A stretch of 64,000 nt of DNA from a virus. The stretch covers positions 32,001-96,000 of the IMG/VR virus record IMGVR_UViG_3300045988_173642. The stretch is one strand, 5' to 3'. This document shows positions 3,522 to 63,947 of the stretch, in pieces. A program made the position numbers and the translations under genes. How positions within the stretch are numbered: position 1 is the stretch's first letter; each line of letters starts with the position of its first letter. A model generated the notes under the pieces. That model was not told where the DNA came from. It saw nothing but the letters and a program-made list of their open reading frames with translations, and did not search any database.

Positions 3522-4399
3522 GTCTTCTACCAAAACCGAAAAAAAGAACAATTTCCAAATATCCAACTTATCTCATGCAGCTGCACGCCGATGGGCAAAA
3601 GTTCAACTTTGAACTTCTGACCTGTCGGCGTGCGCATTTTTGGACTTTTCGTCTGGAAATCTGAAAAAACGCCGATACAACACAAAACCAAAAGTTCAAA
3701 ACAGATACAAAAGTCCATAAGAAATCCATACTGTGTTCCCTATTTGTCTGTTGATTAATTTGCCTTTTCTTATTGAAACACAATTACTTATCATTCAAAA
3801 GTTCAAAAAAATTATTTTTTCATTAAACCTATACGTGAGAGAAATACATTTTATAAAATAGAAATTCATGAAATACAGTGATTTTATAGCTATTTTTTTG
3901 TGCCATCAATTTGCCTTTTCAAATATCGCTAATACATTGAAAGTCTTTAGTTTACAACAACGTTGTAGATGCTACCTACTACAATGTTGGGGTTCGGGGA
4001 TTTCGATTCCGGTAAAATTAAAAAATACGGCAAAATTTTTATATAGTATTAGGTGATTTCAGTGCATTTTTGGACTTTTAATAGACATGGAATACTGAAA
4101 GCCCACAAAATCAATTAGTTAGAAAAGTTCGTAAAATTGGACAAAGTCCAAACCAGAAATGGACCACAACGGACAGGAGAAAACAAAAAAACGGGGCGCA
4201 ACATCGCTGAAAGATGGCGGCCCGCTTCAAACGAAAGTGCGGCGTTGTTGCGAAATAGAACAAAATACGGGAAGGAGGCGGTTGACCAAGAATGCCGAAG
4301 CCGCTCATCATCAATGCTGCTGAACACAGAAAGAGCGGCAATGCCGCTCATAAGAGTGACACTGCCGCTCACATGGGTTACTGCTGCTGCTCATAAGCG

Positions 4400-7300
4400 T
4401 CACGACTTGCCCTTCATGAATTTTGTTGCCTTGTTCATGCTGTCGTAGAGGTTGCCGTGGCCGAACATATCAATCTTGGCGGGGATTGGTTCGCTCAGGC
4501 GTTTCAAGAGCGCGTTTGCGGCCTGCAAAAGTGCGGCGTTGGCTGCAACATTGCTCGCCATCAAATCATCCGACAGAGAAACGCCAGAGAGCTGAGTGGC
4601 GGAATCCGCCACATTGCCGCCGTCAAAGACACGGCGGACACTTCGCCCAGAATAATTGCGGTCGAAGTTGACAAGCGCCTTCAACAGTTGCGGACTATTC
4701 AGCATCATGGCGCGTGTCGTTTCGCGGCCGATAACGATTTCTGGTCCATTCTCGGCAACGAGCGAGGGTTGGCCGTTGATGATGGTTGCCGTTGGCGTTG
4801 TCAGTAAGTTCACGCCGCCATGCCGCGCGTTGTCTTCCCGTGCCATGAAAATTTCTCCGGTGTCGGCCACGTATGGCCGCAATTCTTGAACGTTTCCGGA
4901 ATCGTAAGTCAGCATTCCGGACGTCACCTTGAATTTGTTGGAGTTGGTATCTGCGGCCTTATTGCCTCCAAAGGCACTCGACAAAGCACCCTTAGCCATC
5001 GACAGAAGACCTCCGAGCACTGCACTGATGACGGCAATAAGCGGAATGCCCCACCAACCGAGTTTACCGATAGTCTTGGCAGAACCTTCAGCAATGCCAG
5101 CGGCCGTTCCGACACTGGCACTTGCAACAGAGGTGTTGGCGTCTTCGATGGCTTGCGCCTTCTTCGTGGCAGACAGTTCAACTTCTGACTCCGCCATCAA
5201 CGTGTTGTAGAGCTTTGTCATCACGAACTGTGTGAGTTTTTGTTTTACATATTCGCCCGTGAGGTCGATGAAGGAATTTATCATGTCGCGCGTAGCTTGC
5301 TTTACCGATTTGCTCTCGTCGGTCAGTGCTTCGCCCAAGGCTGTGCCATATTGTTCAATTGGCTTATACCATTTTATCTGCGCTTCGGCCGTTGCCTTCG
5401 CTTTGGCTGCCACGGCATCCATCAAGGAACTATTGAGTTCTGCGACGCGCGCCGCAGCGGCCATGCGGTCTTCGTCGCTGCCTTTGTGGTCTTCAATAAA
5501 ACGATAATACTCCTTCGCCTGGTTAAGTTTCAATTTCAGCAATTCAAGTTCAGGGTCGGTGCCCTTGCTCTGGCCCCACGGCAAAACGATGTCAGCATTT
5601 GCGCCGAAAGAATAGCGACGAGCACTCTCCTTGTTTGTTTCCTCTTTCGCGTCGATAGCTGCCGTCCATTGTTTATTTTCGTCTGACTTATTCCACCGAT
5701 ATTCATTCAATTTCTTTCGCTCTTGGTCATTCTTCTTCAGCGCAGCAGTATAATCTTCATCATACTTAATGAGCCGTTCGTAAAACAGTTTCCAGGCCTC
5801 TGTGTCATCGCCGAGCGTCTGCTTAATGCGGTTGCCGAAACCATCTGCGTCATCGCCAAAAAGCAGATATATGAGCGAAAGACGGCCTTTCACGCTGCTC
5901 ACATCTATCGAGAGCACCTTCACAATTTCGCGCCGTGCCTGCTCATACATGTCTAAAATCAAGTCCTTGCGCTTATTAAACGCCTGGCGGCCTGCTGCGT
6001 CGTCTTGATTCTCCAGCTCATTCAGATTGGCGAACCCGAAGCTATTAAACGCGCCATACGCTCCGCTCTTCACTGCATTCGTGAAGTCAAGTGAAAGAAT
6101 CTCCTTCTGTCGCGCCTGTTGTTGCTGTGCCGCTAACGTCAAATTGTCTTTCGCATTCTTGGTAGCTTTTTTGAAAATTTCAGCCATTACAGAGTGCAGA
6201 GGGATGCCGAGTTCCTGAGATAACTTGCCGATTTTCTTTCGCAAGGCTTCAACGTCATTATTCATAATGCTCTCCAGCAGTTCCTCAGAAAGATTCACCC
6301 CCGCAGCATCTTCCTGCTCCAACATCTGCTTCCTCAAAGATTGCTTTAGAGCCTCCCAAACGTTCGCCTTTCCGGCGATAGCCAACCGAGCCTGCTCGAG
6401 AGCCTTGTTTTCCGCCGCCTTCAGTGGAGCAACATACAACGCCTGCTCCTCCTTGTCCATACCGCGAGCAATAGCTTCTTCGAGCTTAACATTGATTTGC
6501 CGCTCGAAAAAATTAGTAACATTATCCAACAAGGCGTTGGCGTCCGCCTGTGCCTGTTTTAATTCGTCGCGCCGCGACTTTATTCGTTCGCGACGTTCCC
6601 GTGCCAAACGCTTTTCCCTTTCTTCTTCTGTTTCTCCGTCAGACAAAGTACCGAGGTCGTCAATGGGAGGTTCGTAATTGCCAATCCAGGGTTTGAAAAC
6701 GGCATCGATTTCTGACATTGATTTGACAAGTCTATTGCCGCTATTACGATACCAATTAAGAGCCCTCCATAGTCCTGTATCGCCGTAAGTGATAATCCCA
6801 GGGATGCGTCCATTTGGACCATAGCTTACAATGTTATAATCTCCACCAACTTTCCAGTTTAAACCCTTTTCTAACTTACGACTTGTCGCTCCTTTTATGA
6901 ATTTGCCAGACATTGGATGCTTTCCGCTATTTATGGCTTCTCGAACAAGCCCCAAATAGATGTCCCACACATTCTTTCCATCCTCAATGTCATCGATTAT
7001 AGCGTCATAAGAATCCACCGAAAACCACGGGGTTTTCTGCAAATACCGACGAAGATTAATTGCAGCCCCCTGCTTGTCTCTACGTCTCTCCTCCCCTACT
7101 TCTTCTACCGCCTTCTGCTTGAAACGATAATAAGTTGCCTGGGAAATCGACGTCGACAACTTGTCATAATACTTACGCAAATCGTCAACAGTCTTGATTT
7201 CAATGCCGAGGTTTGTAAGATATTGTCGATATTCCGAATTGATGCGGCGAATGAGTTTCTGCTTATTTTCCTGCGACACGTTGGCATCATCCAAGCGCTT

Positions 7301-28886: not shown

Positions 28887-29333
28887 CTACAAGTTCACGA
28901 ATGTTTCCAATTTATAATGCCTAATGGAACAGTTGCATACGTTCTTCATACGTGTAATGAGCAACGAAGTGAAATCTTTCAACGAGATGAATTGTTCGTC
29001 TAAACCATGAATTTGAATCATGGTGCGCCAATAACATTTCCCGTTGCACCAACGGCATGAATGTTCTCGGTCAATCACTAAATCTTCAACCTTTCCGTTC
29101 ATCATATTAAAGACATACAAACAAACATCGCGCAGCAAGTCAAACGGAGCGCCATAAAACAGCAATGTCGGGATATTGTCTTTCTCGCCGCGTAGGTCTT
29201 CTGAATAAGCAATGCGGTGCAGATACGAATAAGGCGTGGGACGGCCCATTTTCTTTTTGTTGCTTCGGTTTGGAACGTATGGAACAGACAAATAACTTCT
29301 TTCCATCTTATTCCATCGATTTCTCGTTAACAC
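28887..29333 (-). CDS. hypothetical protein
   Basis: 148-aa ORF overlapping the exonuclease gene end. Confidence 0.5.
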   Translation of the reverse strand: MLTRNRWNKMERSYLSVPYVPNRSNKKKMGRPTPYSYLHRIAYSEDLRGEKDNIPTLLFYGAPFDLLRDVCLYVFNMMNGKVEDLVIDREHSCRWCNGKCYWRTMIQIHGLDEQFISLKDFTSLLITRMKNVCNCSIRHYKLETFVNL

Positions 29334-29976
29334 ATTGCTTCAACTGCTTCATCATCTGCCACGTAGAATAGATGCTCCGCTTACAATCATAAAGCGGAGA
29401 ATGAACGATGTTTTCTCCGTCGTCGAAATCCTCTGCAAAATCGCTATATCTGATTTCATCGCGACCGCCACGACTTAAAAGCCGAGCCCCTTCCAAGAAG
29501 AAAGTTCGATGGTCGCGAAATTTGGTGTAGCGAACGGGAATTTGCTTATTATATCGATGGCAGATGTGGCGCAAGATGGCTATGTCGAAATCTGTGCCCT
29601 GCGACCATAAATATAGATTGTCTGCCGACAAATCTTCAGACAGCCCCTTAATCCAGGCAAAGAAATGCTCCAGTACGCCTTCAATGGAAAGCAAGGGCGT
29701 GGCATCATCGTCACTAAGAAGTTCTTGCTTGGCCTTAGCGTCTTTCTCCTTCCACCAAATTGAAGTGGAAGCATCAAACGTGAAGCCATCCAAAAACTGC
29801 GAGCGCAAATCAACGTGCTTGTAAAACTGGCAAATGGTTTTCATGCCATTGCCTTCGCCGAAGAACGGCGTATTCTCAAAGTCGCGCCCCCAAGCAACTG
29901 CACCAATACTCATCACGGCGGCCGTTGGGCAAAGCGCACAAGTCTCGAGATCAAAAGTTATATCCAAAATATCCAT
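29308..29976 (-). CDS. DEDDh 3'-5' exonuclease
   Basis: Exo I FDLETCAL, Exo II QGTDFDIAIL, Exo III HSPLYDCKRS (H-x4-D). Confidence 0.7.
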   Translation of the reverse strand: MDILDITFDLETCALCPTAAVMSIGAVAWGRDFENTPFFGEGNGMKTICQFYKHVDLRSQFLDGFTFDASTSIWWKEKDAKAKQELLSDDDATPLLSIEGVLEHFFAWIKGLSEDLSADNLYLWSQGTDFDIAILRHICHRYNKQIPVRYTKFRDHRTFFLEGARLLSRGGRDEIRYSDFAEDFDDGENIVHSPLYDCKRSIYSTWQMMKQLKQCVNEKSME

Positions 29977-31905: not shown

Positions 31906-32187
31906 TTATTTGATTTTTGCATAAATGACCGGCTCGCCACATTCATCGTCCACCATCTTAAAGCCGCGTGCTGCCAGTTCTTCTAAGTACAAGGCAAGAG
32001 GATCGCCCAAAGGACAGACAACGGCTTTGAAATACGTGCGCAACTGATAATCAGTGAACACGTCGCAATCTTCTGTCCAATGAGAGCATGGCGCATACTT
32101 GGCGCAAAACGCTTCAATCTTGGCATAGATAACGAAATCTTGCAAGGTCACTTGCGGCTGCTCATCCATCATTATTTCTTTCTTCAT
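31906..32187 (-). CDS. hypothetical protein
   Basis: 93-aa ORF, packed. Confidence 0.5.
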   Translation of the reverse strand: MKKEIMMDEQPQVTLQDFVIYAKIEAFCAKYAPCSHWTEDCDVFTDYQLRTYFKAVVCPLGDPLALYLEELAARGFKMVDDECGEPVIYAKIK

Positions 32188-36806: not shown

Positions 36807-37679
36807 TTATTCTGGCATACTTTCCAGTAATTCGATGGTGAACTGCTTATAGTCCAATCCAACGCGACTATAAGGCGCATAGGTAAATATATCCTCATTT
36901 AACGCCTGCGCTTCCACCATCTTTGTATCACGGCGTGTATAAGAATCAAACATATAGTCGTTGAACTTGCCACCGAGGTATTGTTTAAACTGCTTCGTCG
37001 CATTCGTCTGGTCGTTGCTCATGACCATCAATAAGCCGCGAACCTCCAAGTAAGGGTTCAAATCTTCACGTGTCTCACTGACCGCCGCAATGATGTCGGC
37101 AATGCCCTTCGTTGCCAACATCTCCAGCTGCACGGGCAATACCACGCTCGAAGCGGCCGTTAAGGCATTAAACGTCAACAGAGACATGGCTGGCGGGCAG
37201 TCAATCAAAATGTAGTCAAAGGCATCCAACGCATGGGTAACGCCCTCTCCTGCCAGTTCGTTGCCTTTCATTTCCTTCAGCGGCCGGGAAAGGATTTTAC
37301 AAAGGGCTTTTCTGGGTACGGACATTTGATTCAAAAACGGGTCAATGCCAATCAGTTTTCCACTCGCTGGCGCAAGATAGATGCCTTCACGCATTTGGTA
37401 AACAGGTAACTGACCCTGCTGCACAATTGCATCATAAACCGTTGGTAAATCCGCACTCTGCATCTCGCTCCAGCCAAACAGGAAGGAGACACAAGCCTGC
37501 GGGTCAAGATCAATAATTAAAACACGTGGAAGACAGGATGACCCGTCGGCGTTCTTGCCAAAATATCCCTTGCCAAATCTTCTGAGGCCCGTTGCAAGGC
37601 TTTGCACCGTTGTCGTCTTGCCCACCCCACCCTTGTGGTTGACAAAGGCAAGCACTTCTTTTAATCGCTTAGTTTCCAT
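36807..37679 (-). CDS. parA: ParA-family partition ATPase
   Basis: Deviant Walker A VNHKGGVGKTTT, DLDPQ, and a later IDCPP motif. Confidence 0.85.
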   Translation of the reverse strand: METKRLKEVLAFVNHKGGVGKTTTVQSLATGLRRFGKGYFGKNADGSSCLPRVLIIDLDPQACVSFLFGWSEMQSADLPTVYDAIVQQGQLPVYQMREGIYLAPASGKLIGIDPFLNQMSVPRKALCKILSRPLKEMKGNELAGEGVTHALDAFDYILIDCPPAMSLLTFNALTAASSVVLPVQLEMLATKGIADIIAAVSETREDLNPYLEVRGLLMVMSNDQTNATKQFKQYLGGKFNDYMFDSYTRRDTKMVEAQALNEDIFTYAPYSRVGLDYKQFTIELLESMPE

Positions 37680-41980: not shown

Positions 41981-42012
41981 TTTGCTTGACAAAAATAAAT
42001 TTATTATCTTTG
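41981..42012 (+). promoter_or_regulatory. Bacteroidota-type promoter (TTTG -33, TATCTTTG -7)
   Basis: TTTG at 41981-41984 and TATCTTTG at 42005-42012, with a 20-nt spacer. Confidence 0.55.
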
Positions 42013-42019
42013 CAATGTC

Positions 42020-42162
42020 TTCGGAGGCTTTTAATCGAACCATCATGGAATTGAAAGAAAAATACACTTCCGTGGACACGCTCTAAGAGCGAATTTCTAC
42101 TATTGTAGATTGCGAGCGGAAGGCTCGCACCAGCCCTGGCCTATGTGCCGGGGCTTTTTTAT
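42020..42162 (+). ncRNA. candidate ~140-nt small RNA (or 13-codon leader peptide mRNA)
   Basis: The promoter above, an internal hairpin GCGAGC-GGAAG-GCTCGC, and terminator AGCCCTGGC-CTATGT-GCCGGGGCT plus TTTTTT. The only ORF is a 13-aa one (MELKEKYTSVDTL). Confidence 0.4.
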
Positions 42163-42164
42163 TG

Positions 42165-42215
42165 CTTGTCACTCCAACAGGAATCGAACCTGCACCATGC
42201 CGACCACGGAGAGCG
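42165..42215 (-). other. tRNA-like T-arm/acceptor element E0
   Basis: Minus strand reads CTCTCCG-TG-GTCGGCATGGT-GCAGG-TTCGATT-CCTGT-TGGAGTG-A. T-loop fits TTCRANY; the flanks pair at 6 of 7 positions. Confidence 0.35.
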
Positions 42216-42284
42216 GTGGGGCGTCGCTATCCTCACGGACAACGACAGCCTAAAAACAAAAAAGATTATGAATTTAAATAACGT

Positions 42285-42335
42285 GTTGCCGCCAGCGGAG
42301 TCGAACCGCTGCAAGGCCAGACCGGGCGCGGATGC
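42285..42335 (-). other. tRNA-like T-arm/acceptor element E3
   Basis: Minus strand reads CCGC-GCCCGGTCTGGCCTTGC-AGCGG-TTCGACT-CCGCT-G-GCGG. Preceded by hairpin GCCTCG-CGAAAAAA-CGAGGC. Confidence 0.35.
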
Positions 42336-42365
42336 CTCGTTTTTTCGCGAGGCTATAAAGAGGGA

Positions 42366-43250
42366 TTAATCCACTTTTAAGTTAATTACACCAATCGCAT
42401 AGTGCCAGTCGTCTTCTTCGTAATCCATAACGCATCCACCAGGACGCTCAAAGACATCATAGGCCGTCCCGACACGTCGCCACAGGCTCCAGCCGCTGCG
42501 ACGCTCAAAATGCTGAATCTGTAGGTGATTTTCTTTGGCCATTGTTTTTGCTTCATCGAAGGACTTAAAGCCAACGATGGCAGGATGAAGGTGGCTGGGG
42601 TAGCCGATAGCGCTGTTTGTCGTCTGAATAACCTTCAAGTCACCATCCGCCAATTCTTCCAATTCGTCATCTGAAGGGGCAACGATAATGTCCTCTTTGT
42701 CGCAAATCTCTTGCAGGCTCATAACCTCCGGGAAATCGTAATCATTATCTTCCGTGACGCTCTCCTCAAATTCTTCCCTATATTCCCGTATGGTGGCATT
42801 CCATTCTTCTTCAATGCTACGAAAATCTGAATATGGTATCACCTTTTCTCCAGTTTCGTGATCGCGTTCCACCTTATTTTCAATGTCGCCGATAATATCA
42901 TGGAGTTCAGACCAGATAAAACCTTTTCGGCAAAGGTGCTGTTTAACCCTATCAACGGCTGCGTAATTCACCGAAGTCCATACGTCGTCACATAGGTCGT
43001 CATCAGCGGCTTCAACATTAATCACGTCAGCCACCATAATCTCGCAATCATCGACGTACGAACCATAACCGTCTTCATAGTTCATCAACGAGTAGCAGCC
43101 ATTATACTGGCTAACGGGGTAGCATCCAGTGTCATGGGCGACCGCCAGAGGCTCAACGCCGGGCATTTCATACGTATCTGCCAAGAACACCTGCTGGCCC
43201 TTATAGCGATAAATATACTTAGGGAGTTGTTTGTTATTCTGTTTCTCCAT
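42366..43250 (-). CDS. hypothetical, strongly acidic protein
   Basis: 294-aa ORF with many D/E runs. A TAACTTTG box lies on the minus strand (complement of 43326-43333). Confidence 0.6.
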   Translation of the reverse strand: MEKQNNKQLPKYIYRYKGQQVFLADTYEMPGVEPLAVAHDTGCYPVSQYNGCYSLMNYEDGYGSYVDDCEIMVADVINVEAADDDLCDDVWTSVNYAAVDRVKQHLCRKGFIWSELHDIIGDIENKVERDHETGEKVIPYSDFRSIEEEWNATIREYREEFEESVTEDNDYDFPEVMSLQEICDKEDIIVAPSDDELEELADGDLKVIQTTNSAIGYPSHLHPAIVGFKSFDEAKTMAKENHLQIQHFERRSGWSLWRRVGTAYDVFERPGGCVMDYEEDDWHYAIGVINLKVD

Positions 43251-43424: not shown

Positions 43425-43480
43425 GCACCCGTCGGCGGAATCGAACCGCCGCAAGGCCATCCAGGCACGGGATTCCTGGG
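43425..43480 (-). other. tRNA-like T-arm/acceptor element E1
   Basis: Minus strand reads CCCGT-GCCTGGATGGCCTTGC-GGCGG-TTCGATT-CCGCC-G-ACGGG. The interior is nearly identical to E3, while both stems differ and still pair. Confidence 0.35.
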
Positions 43481-43485
43481 CTGCG

Positions 43486-43683
43486 TCAAAAGGTTTGGCG
43501 CAAGCAGGTGAACAGTGCGTCTAGTCCCATGTTGTACTCTATGCGCTCCTTGCTGCCGAACTCGTCGGGATTGGGAGAATTGAGGGTGATATACTCTATG
43601 ATGCGTGTCATGGCCTCACGGAGGCTCGCCTTGTCCATATCTATTGTTATAACTGTCTTTTCCATTGTCGTTTTGATTTGCAT
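43486..43683 (-). CDS. hypothetical protein (N-terminus MEKTVITIDMD shared with 44372-44800)
   Basis: 65-aa ORF. Confidence 0.45.
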   Translation of the reverse strand: MQIKTTMEKTVITIDMDKASLREAMTRIIEYITLNSPNPDEFGSKERIEYNMGLDALFTCLRQTF

Positions 43684-50582: not shown

Positions 50583-50634
50583 TGTAGCCGCCGGGGGACT
50601 TGAACCCCCGGCGAGGCCTGGAACCTCCGCGGCT
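50583..50634 (-). other. tRNA-like element E2 (D-arm-less cloverleaf-like fold)
   Basis: Minus strand reads AGCCG-C-GGAGG-TTCCAGG-CCTC-G-CCGGGGG-TTCAAGT-CCCCCGG-CGGCT-A. The 7-nt loop has U33-like T and central CCA. Overlaps the stop of 50634-51032. Confidence 0.35.
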
Positions 50635-51032
50635 TATTTGGCATGCTTACAGGCATTTTCGTAGTCTTCCAATAATTTCCACCGCTCATAAATGGGACCC
50701 CTAACGCCTCTATATTTCCCGGCGTTGGCCGACAAATAAGAGTTAACGGCGGTGAAGGCGTCGCGCCGTACGCGCCCCGTTAGTTCGACGTGTTCTCCGC
50801 AAGCACCGCCGCGCGGTGCGTTGTTGTAGCACTTGTGGGCCACGCCCGCAGCGGTTAAGACCTTGTGCACCTCGTGGGTCTCCACATGATAAGTCCTTTT
50901 GTCACTGTAGCCAGTTTGGGCCACGCCCTTAAGCAAAAGAGTTATTATATGGTTATATGTGCGCGTATTTTTGCGAAGGCCGAAGGGGCGAGGGTCGCGA
51001 ACCACCTGTAATAATATGGAAAACTGTTTCAT
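50634..51032 (-). CDS. hypothetical protein
   Basis: 132-aa ORF. Confidence 0.5.
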   Translation of the reverse strand: MKQFSILLQVVRDPRPFGLRKNTRTYNHIITLLLKGVAQTGYSDKRTYHVETHEVHKVLTAAGVAHKCYNNAPRGGACGEHVELTGRVRRDAFTAVNSYLSANAGKYRGVRGPIYERWKLLEDYENACKHAK

Positions 51033-58611: not shown

Positions 58612-59066
58612 GCCTCTTCTATCTTGAAGGCCGGTTTGGCCAATGCCTTGCAGCGTTCGGCAAAGGCTGTCACTTGCTCCAGGTCGGTTGTGTCACCAAG
58701 CAATGCCTTGCGGTGAGCGCACAACTCTTCTGCATAAGAATATCGAGCGCCAATGAGATAAGCGGCCAAGGTATGATAATCTGAGATGCGGTACACGGCC
58801 ACAAGTTCTTTGATGAATGCCGCGTCAAGACTGTCAAATAAGCCCTGCTGATAAATGGTCTGCAGCAATGTCTGTGCCGTCATTCGTCCTTCATGCGAAA
58901 TGGCCAGTGTGGTGCAACGAACGCGCTGCTCTCCTGCATCATTCTTATAAGATGAAGGGGAGAGGTTGATGGTCAAGAACTCCGTGTTCTTGGAATAAGA
59001 GCGAACGATGTGGCGGGGATTTTCCGTCAAATCTTCGCATTGGCGAAGGGGAATTTTTTCTCTCAT
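58608..59066 (-). CDS. hypothetical protein (DGR-linked accessory ORF)
   Basis: 152-aa ORF with 4-nt ATGA overlaps with both the RT stop and the next ORF start. Confidence 0.5.
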   Translation of the reverse strand: MREKIPLRQCEDLTENPRHIVRSYSKNTEFLTINLSPSSYKNDAGEQRVRCTTLAISHEGRMTAQTLLQTIYQQGLFDSLDAAFIKELVAVYRISDYHTLAAYLIGARYSYAEELCAHRKALLGDTTDLEQVTAFAERCKALAKPAFKIEEA

Positions 59067-60538
59067 AAAATAGATGTTTGAATCATTTTACATTTGTTTC
59101 GCAAACGAATCCGCTCAAAATGGCCATGAATGTAAAAGAACTCGTAGAAGACATGTTCAAAAATAGATAGTGTCGTTTTACGTAAGAGGTAAGACCTTTT
59201 ATTCTTGAAAAAACCGAGGTACGAGTTGATGACTTGTTCCATGCGACGAAGGTCGCACAAGGATATAATGGATTTTTCGCGCAACATTTGGTTGAATCCA
59301 AAAACGCGCTCACGGAAACGAGCAACGGTGCGGCTGGACAGGTATATACGATAGTAACGGATGTAGGCTCCAACAAACATAACACCATGTGAAGCTAATT
59401 GAAAATGATATTTGGTGACGTGAAGCGTAATACCAAGTTCAGACGACAGAAACAAGCGAGCGTCAATGATGAAGGCTTTTAAAGCAGACTTGCTGATGCA
59501 AATGACAACAAAATCATCTACAAAACGCGTGTAGTAGACCTCAAATCCACGGAGTTTGAACCATTGAATTACGAAATCATCAAAGAATGACATAAGGAAA
59601 TTCACGAACACTTGCGTTGTGATATTCCCAATTGGCATTCCGAAGGCAACATCGCTGCCGAAAAGCGACTTATGGCGCTCAATATGCTTGTGCCATTCAT
59701 CTGGCGATGTGTTGAACACACAATTTTGCTCGGGACAATGAAACACGATGGTTTTGGATGCGGCGAACAATTGTTTCAAGTATTGGCCTTTGTATTGTTC
59801 GCGGATGAACGGTTCCAGTTTTGACCATAATATACGCTTGTCTATCGACATGAAGAACGAGACGATGTCGCCCTTAAACACCCATGCAGGGCGGCTATAA
59901 TTGCAAGTTGCCTTCTTGATGTTGTCATATACGGCCTTCTGAGCCGCAAGGGTGCCAAATCCTTTTCGGCAATTGAATGACACATTACCTTGTTCAATAA
60001 AACGCCGCTCAAAATACGGATTGAGAAAAAGAATAATGAAATGATGAACGATGCGATCGCGAAAGCAAGCCGCAAAAACCTCTCTATATTTCGGGTATTT
60101 CACAAGGAAACACGTGCTGACGCCTGGCTTATATGCTCCAGTATATAATTCATGTGCCAATGCTGGCAAATCATGTTCGGCTATCTCGCAATAGTCGATA
60201 CATGCACGGCTGGTGCGTTTACGCTGGCAACAATCGTCAAAAGCAAAAAGCACAAGATCAAGAAAGTCGGTAGGAATATCAAAAGCGACGACAGGACGAA
60301 CCACAAACCCGTTGTACTTATTGTTGTTGTTGATGTTGCCATTGCCGAAGTTGCTGTTCCAACTGTTGTTGCGGTTATACTCCGTGGCGCTCCATCGGTT
60401 GGCCTGAACGTTTACTTTGGGCATTGAAATAGCATAACCACTCCAGACATTTTCATACGAACCATTGCCGTATGAACATAAATCTAAATAGGTATGCCCA
60501 CCTTTTAACAGTCCTCTCGGCTCTCTGTCACAATTCAT
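59063..60538 (-). CDS. DGR reverse transcriptase (long ORF; its first ~95 codons read through the TR; possible true start GTG at 60253)
   Basis: RT motifs FRDRIVHHF, GFGT, GDIVSFFMSID, FGMPIGNITTQVFVN, YTRFVDDFVV. The TR is immediately 5'. Confidence 0.85.
   Translation of the reverse strand: MNCDREPRGLLKGGHTYLDLCSYGNGSYENVWSGYAISMPKVNVQANRWSATEYNRNNSWNSNFGNGNINNNNKYNGFVVRPVVAFDIPTDFLDLVLFAFDDCCQRKRTSRACIDYCEIAEHDLPALAHELYTGAYKPGVSTCFLVKYPKYREVFAACFRDRIVHHFIILFLNPYFERRFIEQGNVSFNCRKGFGTLAAQKAVYDNIKKATCNYSRPAWVFKGDIVSFFMSIDKRILWSKLEPFIREQYKGQYLKQLFAASKTIVFHCPEQNCVFNTSPDEWHKHIERHKSLFGSDVAFGMPIGNITTQVFVNFLMSFFDDFVIQWFKLRGFEVYYTRFVDDFVVICISKSALKAFIIDARLFLSSELGITLHVTKYHFQLASHGVMFVGAYIRYYRIYLSSRTVARFRERVFGFNQMLREKSIISLCDLRRMEQVINSYLGFFKNKRSYLLRKTTLSIFEHVFYEFFYIHGHFERIRLRNKCKMIQTSIL
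60281..60407 (-). repeat. DGR template repeat (TR)
   Basis: 127 bp, 114/127 identical to 61179-61305. All 13 mismatches are at TR adenines on the coding strand. Confidence 0.9.
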
Positions 60539-60562
60539 AAGACAAGTGATTTAAATGATTAT

Positions 60563-61024
60563 TTAAGCACTTACAGAATTACTACCTTGCGAAAATCTGA
60601 CCAGAGAAGATGCGCGCCATGCTGAAACCTGTAAGGAACAGGAAGCGACGAGCGACTTAATCTTCTTAAAATCATCATTACTGATGCAGCCCAATGTCTT
60701 CATGATGCAAATAATAGATTTAATAGCATCTATATGAGCTGCAGCAATAGTCAGCTGCGGCACTCGTGAATACATATCAGCAAATGCAATAGACAAACTC
60801 ACCAATAAACCCGCGCATTCTGAATACATCGGATTGACCACAGGACGATATTTGACTGGACACGTCTTGTTGATTTGCGCCAAGACGAGATACAATTGCT
60901 GAGAATCGCGAAACACCTGCTGCTGATGGATGGTCCGAACTTTCTCTTTCTTGAGCTTTTTACTTCTTTCTTTTTGTTCTGTTGTTATTTGTATATATTG
61001 TGGTTCTTTGTTGTCATTTACCAT
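60563..61024 (-). CDS. avd: Avd-like DGR accessory protein
   Basis: 153-aa predicted helical, basic ORF positioned between VR and TR, as in characterised DGRs. Confidence 0.55.
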   Translation of the reverse strand: MVNDNKEPQYIQITTEQKERSKKLKKEKVRTIHQQQVFRDSQQLYLVLAQINKTCPVKYRPVVNPMYSECAGLLVSLSIAFADMYSRVPQLTIAAAHIDAIKSIICIMKTLGCISNDDFKKIKSLVASCSLQVSAWRASSLVRFSQGSNSVSA

Positions 61025-61132
61025 ACAATTTCCAATTTTATAATTAAATTGTTCACCGCAAAGTTAATAACAATTTTTGATATAAACAAAAATAATTCAG
61101 CCGGCTTACGCCGGCAATGGCATTTTCGTTGA

Positions 61133-61156
61133 GCGACGCGCTAAAAAGCGCGTCGC
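61133..61156. other. GC-rich hairpin 22 nt downstream of the VR end
   Basis: GCGACGCGC-TAAAAA-GCGCGTCGC, a perfect 9-bp stem. A second hairpin GCCGGC-TTAC-GCCGGC lies at 61100-61115. Confidence 0.8.
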
Positions 61157-61163
61157 AAAAAGG

Positions 61164-63947
61164 TTAAAGGATGAAGGGAAAAGCGACGACAGGACGAACC
61201 ACAAACCCGCTGTACTTATAGCTGTTGTAGACGTTGCCATCGCCGAAGTAGCTGCGCCAACTGTAGTAGCGGTCATACTCCGTGGCGCTCCATCGGTGGG
61301 CCTGACGAGGATTGCGCACCGGACAGCCCAGATTGGCGTCTTTCGCGCGTTTCTGCAAGTTTGCATAGAAAGGGCGGCGAGCATCCGTCGGCTCATGCGG
61401 TCGCAGTTCGTTGCCTTCGTCGGAAAAATCCGCCGTTGGCGTACCAGTGTCAGATGGCGTCAGCGCACGGCTATTGCGGAAGAAAATATACAGACGGAAC
61501 ATATCACCGCTGCCATGCAGATACCATTTCCCTTTTTCAAACCACGGCGAAAGGCCGTCAATGGGCTTGCCGCCATTGCTCGGCTCGAACAGGGAACAAG
61601 CGTAGGCGGCAGGATAGGCTAACTGACGCCATCGTTTGTCGCCGCCGATATTTCCAAGCGCCACGCAGAGATCGGCCAGCTCTTCCATCGTTTCTGGAAT
61701 GATATGGTCGCGTACTGCGGGAAGGTAGTCGAAGATGGTGTGACCATCGCTATCTGTCAACAGTCCTTCCCCGACATATTGTGTCAGAATACGATTGGCA
61801 TGTGCCACGATTGAGGCGGTGTCCTTTTTGCCATCCCATCTGTTGGGCGCAGTATTACCTTCATAGACCTTGAATCCGTCACTTTCGTTATCATCATAAG
61901 CCTGCAAGTCTTTGATGTAATACGTTTTTTCGCCTTTTTCGTCCACCATACCAACATCTGTACAATCATTACAAGCGGGGATATTCGTCAAATCGTCATC
62001 AGAGACGGATAATGCTTCAGCAATCACCTTGCGTTCGTCGGGTGTAAATCCCAATTCACCAGTGCCTTGCGGATAAATACCCCATGAAAACTCACTGATG
62101 GAGTTAGCCTTATCTGAGGACGTAATGGTCAGTTCTTCCACGTTTTCGATCAACACTTCATACAGTGTTTTGCCCGAATTATATTGCGCCGAGATTTCTT
62201 CATCCTGCAAATATTCGTTCAAAAGATTCGTTGGTAGGTCGGCATAAGGCGTCACCTTATATACCCAGCCAATAACCTTTTTACCCGGATATAACACGGA
62301 ATCAAACTCACCATTATAGTAAGCGAAATCGCCTAATTTCGGAATGCGGTTGAAAAGTTTCAACACCACTGATGTGCTAAGCGATTTTCCTCCAATCAAG
62401 GTAGCTGTAACAGTCAACGTCGCAGTTGGGTTATTACTTTCCTCGCCGACCGATGGCGCATGCAACACGCCAGTCTCTGCATCCACCGTCACATTAAAAT
62501 CATTCTCAGAGATAGACCACCTTAAATCCGTGAAGTTGTTGGCCATCGTTGGCAACACGGAACATTGGTAAGGATAATCTCCTGGTTCGGCAATAACAAA
62601 GCGTTGCGTAATGATATTCAAGCCTGTCACGCTGCGCAAAGAATAAGTGATATACAAATCATTATTCTCAGAGTCGATTTCGCCGAACTTGCGCAACAAG
62701 GCGAGTTTCAATTCTGCATCCACATTCTGCCCTTCTGTCACGGCAATTCGTCCATACAAAGAGCAATATAGAATCCCAGTTATATAGAATAATACGCTTG
62801 GCGCAACATCTGTCCAATCAATTCCATCTATGCGCAACGTGCTCAACTTTGCGCCAGCCTCACTACATCCACGCACCAAAGAGCGCGTGTCAAAACCGCA
62901 ATTGAGGGCGGTGATCGAAGTTAAACGAGCGTAGCCATCCAGCGTGAGCGTCTGTAACTGCGGCATATCGCGCACTTCAAGTTGTGAGAGCTCCGCACCG
63001 AAGCGAGCCACGGTAAGTTGTGGTGAGGACGGCATACGCACCTGCCCGTATTTCGTTCCGCGAAGGTCGAGTGTTTGCAGTCGTGAAGCCTTAGAGAGGT
63101 TGAATGTTCCGCTGGATGTGCTAACACCATTCAGAGACAGACGCTGCAAATTGGCGGCATCTACATCTATCTGCTTCGGCGCAAACGCACTGCTACCTGC
63201 TTTAGGCTCAGCAATAAACTCCGTCATTCGGCGTCCCTGAATGGTGAAGTTATTATTGCCAACCACCATGTTACCCACGTTACCGATGGAACGATAATAG
63301 TTAGTGGCAGCAAGTCCGACTGATGAGTCGCCAGGAATCGGTGTGGAAGCAGGATTTACTGTGAAGGCATAGTGTCGCCCCGGTATCATGCGGAAATGCG
63401 GGTTGATGAGCGCACGGTCGCGCACGCCACAGGGATAGAGGTACTGATGAGGAACAAGGTCAAATGTGTATTCGCCTCCCGTGCGCCCAGAACCAGGCGT
63501 GAACTGCAAACCAGCGCTGGCGTCCACCAATCCAGTAGAACCAGTGTTCACACCACTTGAGAAGTCACCCCATGCCGCATACGAACAGACAAGAGCCAGT
63601 CGGCGTGTCATATACTGAATCTCGCTCTCCAACTGGTCGCCAATGCCCTGCGTGACGGCGAGAATACCACGCGCCTGGTTGCCGTAACTCTCATAGCCCC
63701 ACGATGCGGGCCAGTCGTATCGGATGCGCTGCTGTTCCGCCCATGCTACCTCGGCAAAGTACTTTTGAACTGAGAAGAAATACTTGTGTATACAACCGTA
63801 TGGCGTTTGGCGTTGTGTCGTTGTAAGGCCGTCTATATTCTCATTCGCCCCAACCAACGTACACATGGCCGTCAACACTTCACGCATATTGGCCGGCAAT
63901 GCCGTTTGGTCGAGCGTTTCCCATGCCGCCTCCATGACATTGAACAA
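61164..63947 (-). CDS. DGR target protein, probable receptor-binding tail fibre (LRR-like repeats, Ig-like segment, C-terminal variable lectin-fold-type domain)
   Basis: 927 aa. LRR-like LQRLSLNGV...LQTLDLRGT...LSQLEVRDMPQLQTLTLDG...LSTLRIDG. Ig-like TVDAETGVLHAP...LTVTATLIGGKS. VR within the last 50 codons. Confidence 0.8.
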   Translation of the reverse strand: MFNVMEAAWETLDQTALPANMREVLTAMCTLVGANENIDGLTTTQRQTPYGCIHKYFFSVQKYFAEVAWAEQQRIRYDWPASWGYESYGNQARGILAVTQGIGDQLESEIQYMTRRLALVCSYAAWGDFSSGVNTGSTGLVDASAGLQFTPGSGRTGGEYTFDLVPHQYLYPCGVRDRALINPHFRMIPGRHYAFTVNPASTPIPGDSSVGLAATNYYRSIGNVGNMVVGNNNFTIQGRRMTEFIAEPKAGSSAFAPKQIDVDAANLQRLSLNGVSTSSGTFNLSKASRLQTLDLRGTKYGQVRMPSSPQLTVARFGAELSQLEVRDMPQLQTLTLDGYARLTSITALNCGFDTRSLVRGCSEAGAKLSTLRIDGIDWTDVAPSVLFYITGILYCSLYGRIAVTEGQNVDAELKLALLRKFGEIDSENNDLYITYSLRSVTGLNIITQRFVIAEPGDYPYQCSVLPTMANNFTDLRWSISENDFNVTVDAETGVLHAPSVGEESNNPTATLTVTATLIGGKSLSTSVVLKLFNRIPKLGDFAYYNGEFDSVLYPGKKVIGWVYKVTPYADLPTNLLNEYLQDEEISAQYNSGKTLYEVLIENVEELTITSSDKANSISEFSWGIYPQGTGELGFTPDERKVIAEALSVSDDDLTNIPACNDCTDVGMVDEKGEKTYYIKDLQAYDDNESDGFKVYEGNTAPNRWDGKKDTASIVAHANRILTQYVGEGLLTDSDGHTIFDYLPAVRDHIIPETMEELADLCVALGNIGGDKRWRQLAYPAAYACSLFEPSNGGKPIDGLSPWFEKGKWYLHGSGDMFRLYIFFRNSRALTPSDTGTPTADFSDEGNELRPHEPTDARRPFYANLQKRAKDANLGCPVRNPRQAHRWSATEYDRYYSWRSYFGDGNVYNSYKYSGFVVRPVVAFPFIL
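61179..61305 (-). repeat. DGR variable repeat (VR) at the 3' end of the target gene
   Basis: See TR. Encodes ...HRWSATEYDRYYSWRSYFGDGNVYNSYKYSGFVVRPVVAF versus the TR-encoded ...NRWSATEYNRNNSWNSNFGNGNINNNNKYNGFVVRPVVAF. Confidence 0.9.

Follow-up and report, generated by a model that had tools for sequence, protein, structure and literature searches.

A conserved post-stop module of tRNA-like elements as candidate punctuation in phage mRNAs

A 64,000-nt stretch of viral DNA (positions 32,001 to 96,000 of the IMG/VR record IMGVR_UViG_3300045988_173642; hereafter the window) is, by its encoded proteins, a fragment of a tailed-phage genome. In it, a gene for an acidic 294-amino-acid protein (42366-43250, minus strand) is followed by two short elements resembling the acceptor stem and T-arm of a tRNA, with a spacer and a hairpin between them. 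Comparison with related phages identifies such elements as a selected, strand-specific RNA structure that stands after stop codons and bears the hallmarks of tRNA. They may serve as tRNA-mimic punctuation in phage mRNAs, read by RNase P, RNase Z and the CCA-adding enzyme, a tentative reading to which a probability of roughly 45% is given here.

Four minus-strand structures follow the stop codon of 42366-43250, as an earlier note on this DNA had described: hairpin 1, element B (the E3 of that note), hairpin 2 with its conserved apex, and element E0. All four lie where they had been placed. Hairpin 1 (42333-42356) extends from the stop codon to element B, has the form GCCUCG-CGAAAAAA-CGAGGC and folds at -10.7 kcal/mol (z = -4.1). 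It stays paired through a U.G change in the second copy in the related locus L115 and is weakened in L116. It is restricted to the window's clade; divergent modules lack it and have in its place a short pyrimidine-rich leader of 8-21 nt, ending ..CCCC(A)U. Element B (42288-42332, minus strand) is a mini tRNA mimic that scores 66.6 bits with the covariance model R1 described below. Its acceptor has 4 bp in the window (CCGC/GCGG) and 5 bp in most relatives (CCCGC/GCGGG); a middle hairpin of 3 bp (GCC-CGGUCU-GGC) and a CUUG linker precede a 6-bp T-stem (CAGCGG/CCGCUG) with the T-loop UUCGACU, and (C)AAC stands directly 3' of the element.

An A/U-rich, single-stranded spacer (42251-42287, minus strand; ..UUCAUAAUCUUUUUUGUUUUUAG) leads from B to hairpin 2. 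It is 93-97% identical in L238, L242 and L244, and alignments show that the modules of divergent phages keep its A/U-rich character and its core, CAUAAUC..(A)GUAUUUUUGUUU. Hairpin 2 (42220-42250, minus strand; -21.2 kcal/mol, z = -6.4) joins a variable, covarying lower stem, with compensatory pairs at alignment columns 136-159 and 137-158, to an invariant apex with a GNRA loop. The apex reads GGUCC-GUGA-GGAUAGC(C) in the window (GGUCCGUGAGGAUAGC) and GGUCC-GNGA-GGAUAGC across divergent modules; 65 distinct sequences in the related loci contain it, and in nearly all of them an E0-like element comes next. The invariant apex is probably a binding site. Two other ideas about this stretch were discarded. 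A promoter inside the spacer (TAnnTTTG-like GUAUUUUUG) would lack a -33 box, and in the window and several relatives its motif is either missing or shifted in register; a resemblance of hairpin 2 to signal recognition particle RNA domain IV, a sarcin-ricin loop or a K-turn has no support from Rfam.

Element E0 (42168-42215, minus strand; 56.1 bits with the second model, R2) is a mini tRNA mimic folded as a three-way junction. In it, a 1-nt spacer, U, separates the 6-bp acceptor (CGCUCU/GGAGUG) from a 5-bp T-stem (GCAGG/CCUGU) that bears the T-loop UUCGAUU, and a GU linker leads from the 5-bp middle hairpin (CCGUG-GUCGG-CAUGG) to the T-arm. Two further family members that had been proposed near 43425-43480 and 50583-50634, on the gene strand and just past a stop codon, were confirmed as the solitary copies A and C. 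Element A (43428-43471, minus strand; R1 62 bits) is a paralogue of B, lies between the stop codon of 43486-43683, 9 nt away, and the promoter of the acidic-protein gene, and allows two acceptor registers, CCCGU/ACGGG (5 bp) or GUGCCUG/CGGGUGC (7 bp with G.U pairs). L115, L116, L238 and L244 have orthologues of it, and where present it is 98-100% identical. Element C (50587-50633, minus strand; R1 64.4 bits) is an intercistronic paralogue whose first nucleotide is also the final one of the UAA stop of 50634-51032; 20 nt separate its 3' end from the start codon that follows (50566). Its acceptor is AGCCG/CGGCU, its middle hairpin GAGG-UUCCAGG-CCUC, and its 6-bp T-stem, CGGGGG/CCCCCG, carries the loop UUCAAGU.

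Several details of the first description had to be revised. The canonical T-loop and its G-C closing pair stand, but the T-stem of A, B and C has 6 bp rather than 5. The segments said to bracket each T-arm like an acceptor are present and covary; for E0, however, the proposed 7-bp pairing CUCUCCG/UGGAGUG gives way to the 6-bp helix with its 1-nt spacer. The 7-bp register contains a U-U mismatch and is broken in L116, and neither it nor the alternative CACUUCG/UGGAGUG is conserved between the window and its relatives. The acceptor was fixed at 6 bp because the compensatory changes seen in orthologues (G.U to A-U and U.G to C-G) are compatible with that register alone. The earlier note had also found neither a D-arm nor a normal anticodon arm: the anticodon arm is indeed missing, but both elements have a conserved middle hairpin. 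Finally, the two tandem elements are both real, but they are parts of a larger composite module that includes the hairpin with the conserved apex.

Within the window, a permissive structural search, which asked for a TTCRANN T-loop, 5 or more bp in the T-stem and 4 or more in a flanking stem, found six candidates including A, B, C and E0, against a mean of 1.0 and a maximum of 3 in mononucleotide shuffles. One weak match (37137-37170) lies within the ParA gene, is conserved as coding sequence and was set down to chance. The motif GGCCTTGCNGCGGTTCGAYTCCGC occurs twice, against 0 expected. The fold of C has z = -3.1; the folding energies of A, B and E0 are unremarkable on their own, so it is comparison with relatives that has to carry the case for the elements.

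Related loci (given L numbers) were collected by pattern scans (L002, L036, L039, L061, L071 and L118), through homologues of the protein upstream of C traced to their contigs (L238-L248), and through the ligase (62 loci, L249-L310, with 52-93% amino-acid identity). Most come from IMG metagenome 3300045988 and the others from ENA and Logan assemblies. Pattern scanning was a poor guide in itself: about 100 of the 114 matches of the first viral-contig scan were chance matches in coding DNA, and a metagenome scan returned mostly chance matches and real tRNA-Leu genes. Plain MAFFT alignments of single elements put the stems out of register, and covariance models with realignment were used instead.

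Model R1, for the B/A/C type, was built from 17 copies. It finds the orthologues of B, A and C in all close relatives and has 48 matches across 60 divergent loci, every one on the gene (ligase) strand. The B-type alignment has 97.5% of its cells paired. Column shuffles give 92.0%, none of 500 reaching the observed value, and slid partners give 25-66%. True compensation is seen in the T-stem, as two of its pairs illustrate: pair 33-48 is AU in 21 sequences, UA in 6, CG in 2 and GC and UG in 1 each, and pair 32-49 is AU in 25, GC in 4 and GU in 2. The B-type acceptor, CCCGC/GCGGG, is nearly invariant, and its changes are from C-G to U-G. Such one-sided changes pair only in RNA of the gene strand. 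The middle hairpin (GCC..GGC) is 95.7% paired and shows wobble changes only. Between paralogues the acceptors differ wholly in sequence and are nevertheless complementary (CCCGU/ACGGG, CCGC/GCGG, AGCCG/CGGCU, UCCUU/AAGGA and GGGUG/CACCC). Most B and A copies have a U at position -1.

With model R2, for the E0 type, 84 copies were identified in 72 sources, and here too every copy is on the gene strand. B-type copies are detected by R2 as well, at about 26 bits, so the two types are related. Here 88.7% of cells are paired, compared with 77.3% in shuffles and 35-45% with slid partners, and a covariation score of 0.297 compares with 0.115 for shuffles. Pairing reaches 96.8% in the acceptor, where five of the six pairs show two-sided change, with variants such as CGCCCA/UGGGCG, CGCCCG/CGGGCG, CACUCC/GGAGUG and CGCUCY/GGAGUG; several acceptor sequences coexist within one genome. 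The T-stem is 95.3% paired. In the middle hairpin CCACG/CGUGG alternates with CCAUG/CAUGG, a compensatory change from C-G to U-A, and the window has CCGUG/CAUGG. After the acceptor come A (at least 90%) and then an invariant C, across 44 distinct sequences. The T-loop, GG-UUCRANY-CC, varies only at positions 57 and 59/60.

Since the R1 and R2 alignments are fitted to their models and contain mutually related sequences, an independent check was made by giving RNAalifold 12 whole modules aligned simply with MAFFT. All seven helices emerged from it, with 12 of 38 pairs compensatory. Together the two models give 132 matches in about 70 phage loci, mostly orthologues outside the seeds. The earlier note had made its proposal depend on compensatory changes in the flanking stems among homologous phages, and had called for covariance models and a search of related phages; the changes are there, and the 48 and 84 copies so recovered have stems that covary.

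In phages whose ligase is 52-70% identical, the order is constant: stop codon, leader, B-type element, spacer, hairpin 2, E0-type element. Comparative analysis thus identifies B, spacer, hairpin 2 and E0 as one conserved module, kept across phages with proteins down to about 50% identity. Copies start 0-35 nt past stop codons. The E0-type element is followed in some cases by a terminator and then another promoter, and in others by a start codon about 35 nt away. A locus holds one to three modules, behind paralogous or unrelated genes, and arrays of the form E0-spacer-hairpin 2-E0 occur in L260, L269 and L300. Element C is 94-100% identical between relatives, compared with 72-85% for its flanking genes.

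As the earlier note had held, these are not conventional tRNA genes. ARAGORN finds no tRNA or transfer-messenger RNA (tmRNA) in the whole window or in related loci, and for the window elements Rfam 15 returns nothing at the gathering score and no tRNA match at E ≤ 10, where a 17-nt T-arm fragment matches beta_tmRNA with 13.7 bits. Searches for tRNA, tmRNA and Rfam families, conventional or relaxed, made no call. The elements lack the four-arm cloverleaf with anticodon arm of canonical tRNA (RF00005), and the loops of their middle hairpins vary in length from 4 to 7 nt. The canonical T-arm, GG-UUCRANY-CC, is kept in A, B, C, E0 and nearly all orthologues, with the exceptions of a 6-bp stem in the A/B/C type and an 8-nt loop in many E0-type copies. 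An uninterrupted 12-bp (7+5) stack of acceptor on T-stem is also lacking, the values being 4-5+6 for B, 5+6 for A and C, and 6+5 with a 1-nt spacer for E0. Neither a tmRNA-like body of tag open reading frame and pseudoknots nor the Ro60-binding helix of a YrlA-type RNA accompanies the tRNA-like part, the ARAGORN tmRNA search and Rfam both being negative. An intrinsic terminator can be set aside in the window, where no U-tract follows A, B, C or E0; the 3' flanks are CAACACG (B), UGCAAAAAC (A), UACACUAAC (C) and ACAAGCAAUAAAAAA (E0). What the elements do resemble are t-elements and mascRNA: they have a selected fold of acceptor and T-arm without an anticodon arm, and they lie on the sense strand, either where a transcript ends or in the gap separating two cistrons.

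RNase P, RNase Z and the CCA-adding enzyme read an acceptor stem stacked on a T-arm and ignore the anticodon arm. Having lost that arm, the elements cannot decode. The parts that they retain, namely acceptor and T-arm, canonical T-loop, a hairpin with a GG-containing loop and an A(-C) after the acceptor, are those that the enzymes of tRNA maturation read, and punctuation is favoured for this reason. Host RNase P would cut at the 5' edge of each mimic, and RNase Z or exonucleases would trim the 3' edge, which the CCA-adding enzyme may then extend. The small hairpin could provide an 'elbow' contact. The primary transcript would in this way yield the upstream mRNA, two stable mini-tRNAs of about 45 nt and, from between them, a spacer/hairpin 2 RNA of about 70 nt; a mimic on either side of the spacer and hairpin 2 is the layout that excision of intervening RNA would need. 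The solitary copies A and C would separate or terminate cistrons. Trimming of RNA 3' ends could be helped by a phage-encoded Rv2179c-like DEDD 3'-5' exoribonuclease (29308-29976, minus strand).

Several observations weigh against punctuation by tRNA mimics. The stack of acceptor and T-stem has 10-12 bp, often with a 1-nt spacer, instead of the canonical 7+5; many E0-type copies have the 8-nt T-loop; CCA is not encoded; and none of the elements attains E ≤ 10 with the Rfam model of tRNA. In most relatives, moreover, an RNase P cut 5' of B would leave the mRNA with an unstructured, unprotective tail of 8-12 nt. Where the orthologue of C's upstream gene has diverged to 42-54% identity, a plain GC hairpin (AGGACCGGCGNCGCCGGUCCU) holds C's post-stop position (L246:820-860, L247:1040-1075 and L248:862-895), so that a generic stable structure may suffice in distant relatives.

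That last observation leads to an alternative that is unlikely but has to be weighed, in which the elements are generic RNA stabilisers or terminator-like structures. Their GC-rich junctions would block 3'-5' exonucleases, or pause or terminate RNA polymerase, and their likeness to tRNA would be the relic of a phage tRNA gene. The invariable post-stop position on the gene strand fits such a role, as does the canonical terminator hairpin that often follows E0-type copies. Against this, a stable stem would do for the purpose, whereas subtypes with wholly different stems have kept the T-loop, the G-C closing pairs, the GG-loop hairpin and the A-C tail. Two mimics around a third conserved hairpin are likewise more than a stabiliser needs, and a terminator would be expected to have the U-tract that B, A and C lack.

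The surroundings of the module bear on a second alternative. The acidic protein encoded upstream has no match in Pfam or PHROG and has a C-terminal domain (..GYPSH..IVGF.SF.EA..) in common with the product of an extra gene in L115 (L115:8309-8840). It clusters with orphan DNA methyltransferases and an LPD29 polyvalent protein, which suggests an anti-defence neighbourhood. The hairpins downstream of E0 belong to a small RNA on the opposite strand (41981-42162, plus strand), a unit running from promoter to terminator, about 145 nt long, that abuts the 3' end of E0. Its promoter is of the Bacteroidota type (41981-42012), its canonical terminator ends at 42162, and it contains two mimics of CRISPR repeats. 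The first (42028-42057, plus strand; CUUUUAAUCGAACCAUCAUGGAAUUGAAAG) matches Rfam CRISPR-DR2 over nearly its full length with 23.1 bits, below threshold, and ends in AUUGAAAG, the 8-nt handle of type I-B/III repeats. The second (42080-42110, plus strand; GCUCUAAGAGCGAAUUUCUACUAUUGUAGAU) is of the Cas12a type (..AAUUUCUACUAUUGUAGAU); its 3' part equals the Cas12a CRISPR RNA (crRNA) handle, AAUUUCUACU-N-GUAGAU, a string found in 454 papers, those listed being work on Cas12a crRNA. Of 79 related loci, 33 have one solitary repeat of this type, in every case antisense to the genes, and more than 120 viral contigs with one are among the matches listed. The small RNA looks like a candidate solitary-repeat RNA anti-CRISPR or mini-array. 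Such elements are of a known kind, reportedly described by Camara-Wilpert et al. in 2023 and by Faure et al. in 2019.

With such neighbours the mimics might be anti-defence decoys, that is, processed mini-tRNAs that soak up or inhibit attackers of the acceptor end such as Cas12a3, MenT-type nucleotidyltransferases or CapRel-type toxins. We consider this quite unlikely. It is compatible with punctuation, as decoys presuppose the same processing and merely place the function in the released small RNAs. For recognition, a Cas12a3 of Bacteroidetes origin needs the backbone of the T-arm together with acceptor stem and CCA and can do without the D and anticodon arms; viral counter-measures are not known according to the authors of that study (PMC12851939). 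The mimics keep just the acceptor, the T-arm and an elbow-like hairpin. Several acceptor sequences per genome would also suit decoys, and the neighbourhood resembles an anti-defence island, from the orphan methyltransferases and the LPD29 protein to the opposite-strand Cas12a-type repeat, a type that recurs among the related loci. On the other side, the decoys would not encode CCA, the small RNA with its Cas12a-type repeat adjoins the module in the window's clade only and elsewhere such repeats lie 1-3 kb off, and intercistronic copies (C, and an E0 subtype right before start codons) look like punctuation. The specific proposal of a counter-defence aimed above all at the RNA-triggered Cas12a3 nucleases of Bacteroidota, with mini-tRNAs excised and CCA-tailed by the host as decoys or competitive inhibitors and the Cas12a-type repeat as a second RNA layer aimed at the same effector family, is improbable. 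As decoys, the mimics would constitute the first viral response to immunity that targets tRNA tails.

A role at the level of DNA has a comparably low probability. Boundary repeats would then be homology patches for the shuffling of gene cassettes, as in T4-like promoter-stem-loop repeats. Two chimeras are in keeping with it. In L242 (13282-13326) the 5' half of A is joined to the 3' half of B, the acceptor is broken and the T-loop reads UUAGACU; in L244 (17238-17282) B is fused to E0 across their common T-loop, and hairpin 2 is deleted. In L115 two full modules, about 93% identical, bracket the extra paralogous gene, the genes themselves having diverged, and the genes upstream of the module vary between phages. 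The sequences thus indicate that paralogous mimics recombine with each other and remodel gene cassettes; as marks of recombination break-points, the elements explain part of the gene-cassette mosaicism in this phage group. Recombination as the selected function, on the other hand, leaves the compensatory changes, strand-specific G.U pairs, strict orientation and loop conservation unexplained. Since these remain and the stems of the chimeras are broken, as in by-products, recombination is most likely a consequence of the repeats.

That the elements are scars of integration into tRNA genes or decaying tRNA pseudogenes is highly improbable. In favour of this reading, attP sites typically duplicate the T-arm of a tRNA gene along with its 3' acceptor strand, and in genuine class II tRNA-Leu genes GGCCUYGY can be found before the T-arm as the 3' strand of the variable arm. 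Against it, the complementary 5' acceptor strand is present and covaries, one truncated architecture recurs in all paralogues and about 70 phages, no host tRNA has the 3' halves of E0 or A/B, no integrase domain is encoded in open reading frames of at least 150 amino acids in the window, and ParA suggests an extrachromosomal lifestyle. The att scar, raised in the earlier note, fails on the genome searches in particular: no tRNA gene 3' half in 185,579 species genomes (GTDB) fits the elements. The E0 3' half has no match there, and the A/B 3'-half pattern occurs at 71 loci, none of them a Bacteroidota tRNA; three of these overlap ARAGORN calls, all in GC-rich Actinobacteria or Acidobacteria DNA. 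The elements may derive from the acceptor, variable arm and T-arm of a tRNA-Leu, or the middle hairpin may instead be a D-arm analogue.

For tRNA-mimic punctuation there are precedents of several kinds, tRNA-like processing signals being established in organelles, eukaryotic long non-coding RNAs (lncRNAs), an archaeal rRNA operon and one herpesvirus. A search of Rfam 15 and the literature found no description of a conserved, repeated family of such signals in bacteriophage mRNAs. One is the tRNA-punctuation model of organellar transcripts, and with it the plant mitochondrial t-elements, which are cleavage signals for RNase P and RNase Z, as Forner et al. reportedly showed in 2007. Like them, the phage elements are non-decoding folds of acceptor and T-arm at mRNA ends or between cistrons. 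The plant elements have been reviewed (PMC9181182). They differ from those described here, which belong to double-stranded DNA phages and have an extra hairpin, a 6-bp T-stem or 1-nt spacer, and a fixed pairing around hairpin 2. In the case of MALAT1 mascRNA/MEN-beta, RNase P makes the 3' end of the upstream RNA, and the mini-tRNA is trimmed by RNase Z and CCA-tailed. The phage elements would work similarly, as a tRNA-like structure downstream of an RNA whose 3' end it sets. Modules of the mascRNA type are mentioned elsewhere (PMC11146593). Unlike the phage elements, mascRNA comes from a eukaryotic nuclear lncRNA and forms a cloverleaf with a stunted anticodon arm, and a triple helix protects the RNA upstream; among the phage modules, an upstream hairpin that might protect is confined to the window's clade.

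The closest layout is archaeal. In Haloferax, a t-element upstream of 5S rRNA is processed, and the RNA of t-element-flanked icrRNAs is released by RNase P and tRNase Z (PMC4326828). The order t-element, RNA, t-element is that of B, spacer/hairpin 2 and E0; the Haloferax case differs in being an rRNA operon or engineered construct of an archaeon, without sequence relationship to the phage elements. In the tmRNA and YrlA-type RNAs, the tRNA-like domain resembles the elements in having an acceptor, a T-arm and a D-loop analogue and in missing the anticodon arm. The YrlA-type RNAs, which are bacterial Y RNAs, are also encoded by phages (PMC4201824). Both differ in that a large domain, of tag open reading frame and pseudoknots or a Ro60-binding helix, replaces the arm. 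The TMERs of murine gammaherpesvirus 68 consist of a non-aminoacylated tRNA mimic and pre-miRNA hairpins, separated by RNase Z. They too are a virus-encoded tRNA mimic followed by hairpins; they differ as Pol III transcripts of a eukaryotic virus that have a full cloverleaf and do not lie within mRNAs. RNase P reportedly cleaves bacterial operon mRNAs (Li and Altman, in 2003) and precursors of the C4 RNA of phages P1 and P7 (Hartmann et al., in 1995). These sites resemble the present proposal as tRNA-like folds, other than tRNA, in intercistronic or precursor RNA, but they are idiosyncratic and form no repeated, conserved family with a canonical T-loop. The action of RNase P on non-tRNA substrates has been reviewed (PMC11143913).

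Elements of a related kind were seen outside this phage group. Haloarchaeal chromosomes carry mini T-arm/acceptor elements, two or three per locus and on the gene strand, in the gene spacers of operons for VWA, TasA-like and signal-peptidase proteins (L340:1317-1350, 2245-2282 and 4378-4414; L341:7025-7068, 5417-5455 and 3788-3822; about 25 further loci among L311-L380). They have the form CCCGC..CGGCGG-UUCGACU-CCGCCG-GCGGG, with a compensatory acceptor CCCAC/GUGGG, and neither ARAGORN nor Rfam calls them. Since the copies were chosen by their T-arm pattern, its identity is not independent evidence. Punctuation by tRNA mimics may nevertheless be more widespread. In another phage group (L055:5245-5340, L187, L216, L226 and L236), a T-arm-like hairpin, GUCGGGG-UUCGAUU-CCCCGAC, stands right past a stop codon and precedes a conserved nested hairpin, AUCCCCG..GCGG..CCGC..CGGGGAU; the two form a distinct post-gene module with a T-loop. 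Moss-associated metagenomes (L123, L127, L132, L133, L173, L179, L201 and L207; GC 0.29-0.37) contain an AT-rich repeat with a 7-bp acceptor, a 5-bp T-arm and a GGCCUUG connector (AACUCCA..UGAGG-UUCAACU-CCUCA-UGGAGUU), which is probably a eukaryotic tRNA-derived repeat or an organellar t-element and was left out of the family.

The phage group to which the window belongs is known from metagenomes only; in a blastn search against 50,697 deposited phage genomes the window had no match. Judged by content, its genes encode a tape-measure protein, a sliding clamp, a NAD-dependent DNA ligase, a PAPS reductase, a holin, DNA methylases, the DEDD exoribonuclease-like protein, ParA and a diversity-generating retroelement. 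Promoters of the Bacteroidota type (TTTG, 17-21 nt, TAnnTTTG) are enriched, with 10 sites against 1.75 expected and none of 100 shuffles reaching 10, which makes a host from the Bacteroidota probable. Pfam scans of the window's open reading frames of at least 150 amino acids, the short ones being left unscanned, found no integrase or recombinase. Together with the phage-encoded ParA ATPase (36807-37679, minus strand), this suggests the lifestyle of a plasmid-like, extrachromosomal prophage. The retroelement is complete (59063-63947, minus strand). It comprises a reverse transcriptase (59063-60538, minus strand), a template repeat (60281-60407) and a variable repeat (61179-61305) at the C-terminus of a 927-amino-acid target protein, and all 13 mismatches between the two repeats are at template adenines.

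The models R1 and R2 can be used for annotation and for the design of experiments. The RNA biology of Bacteroidota is poorly understood, and these bacteria are not known to have Hfq. If the elements are indeed tRNA-mimic punctuation, gut phages of Bacteroidota would use the tRNA maturation of their host to shape their transcriptome and to release small RNAs, which would include hairpin 2 with its invariant apex.

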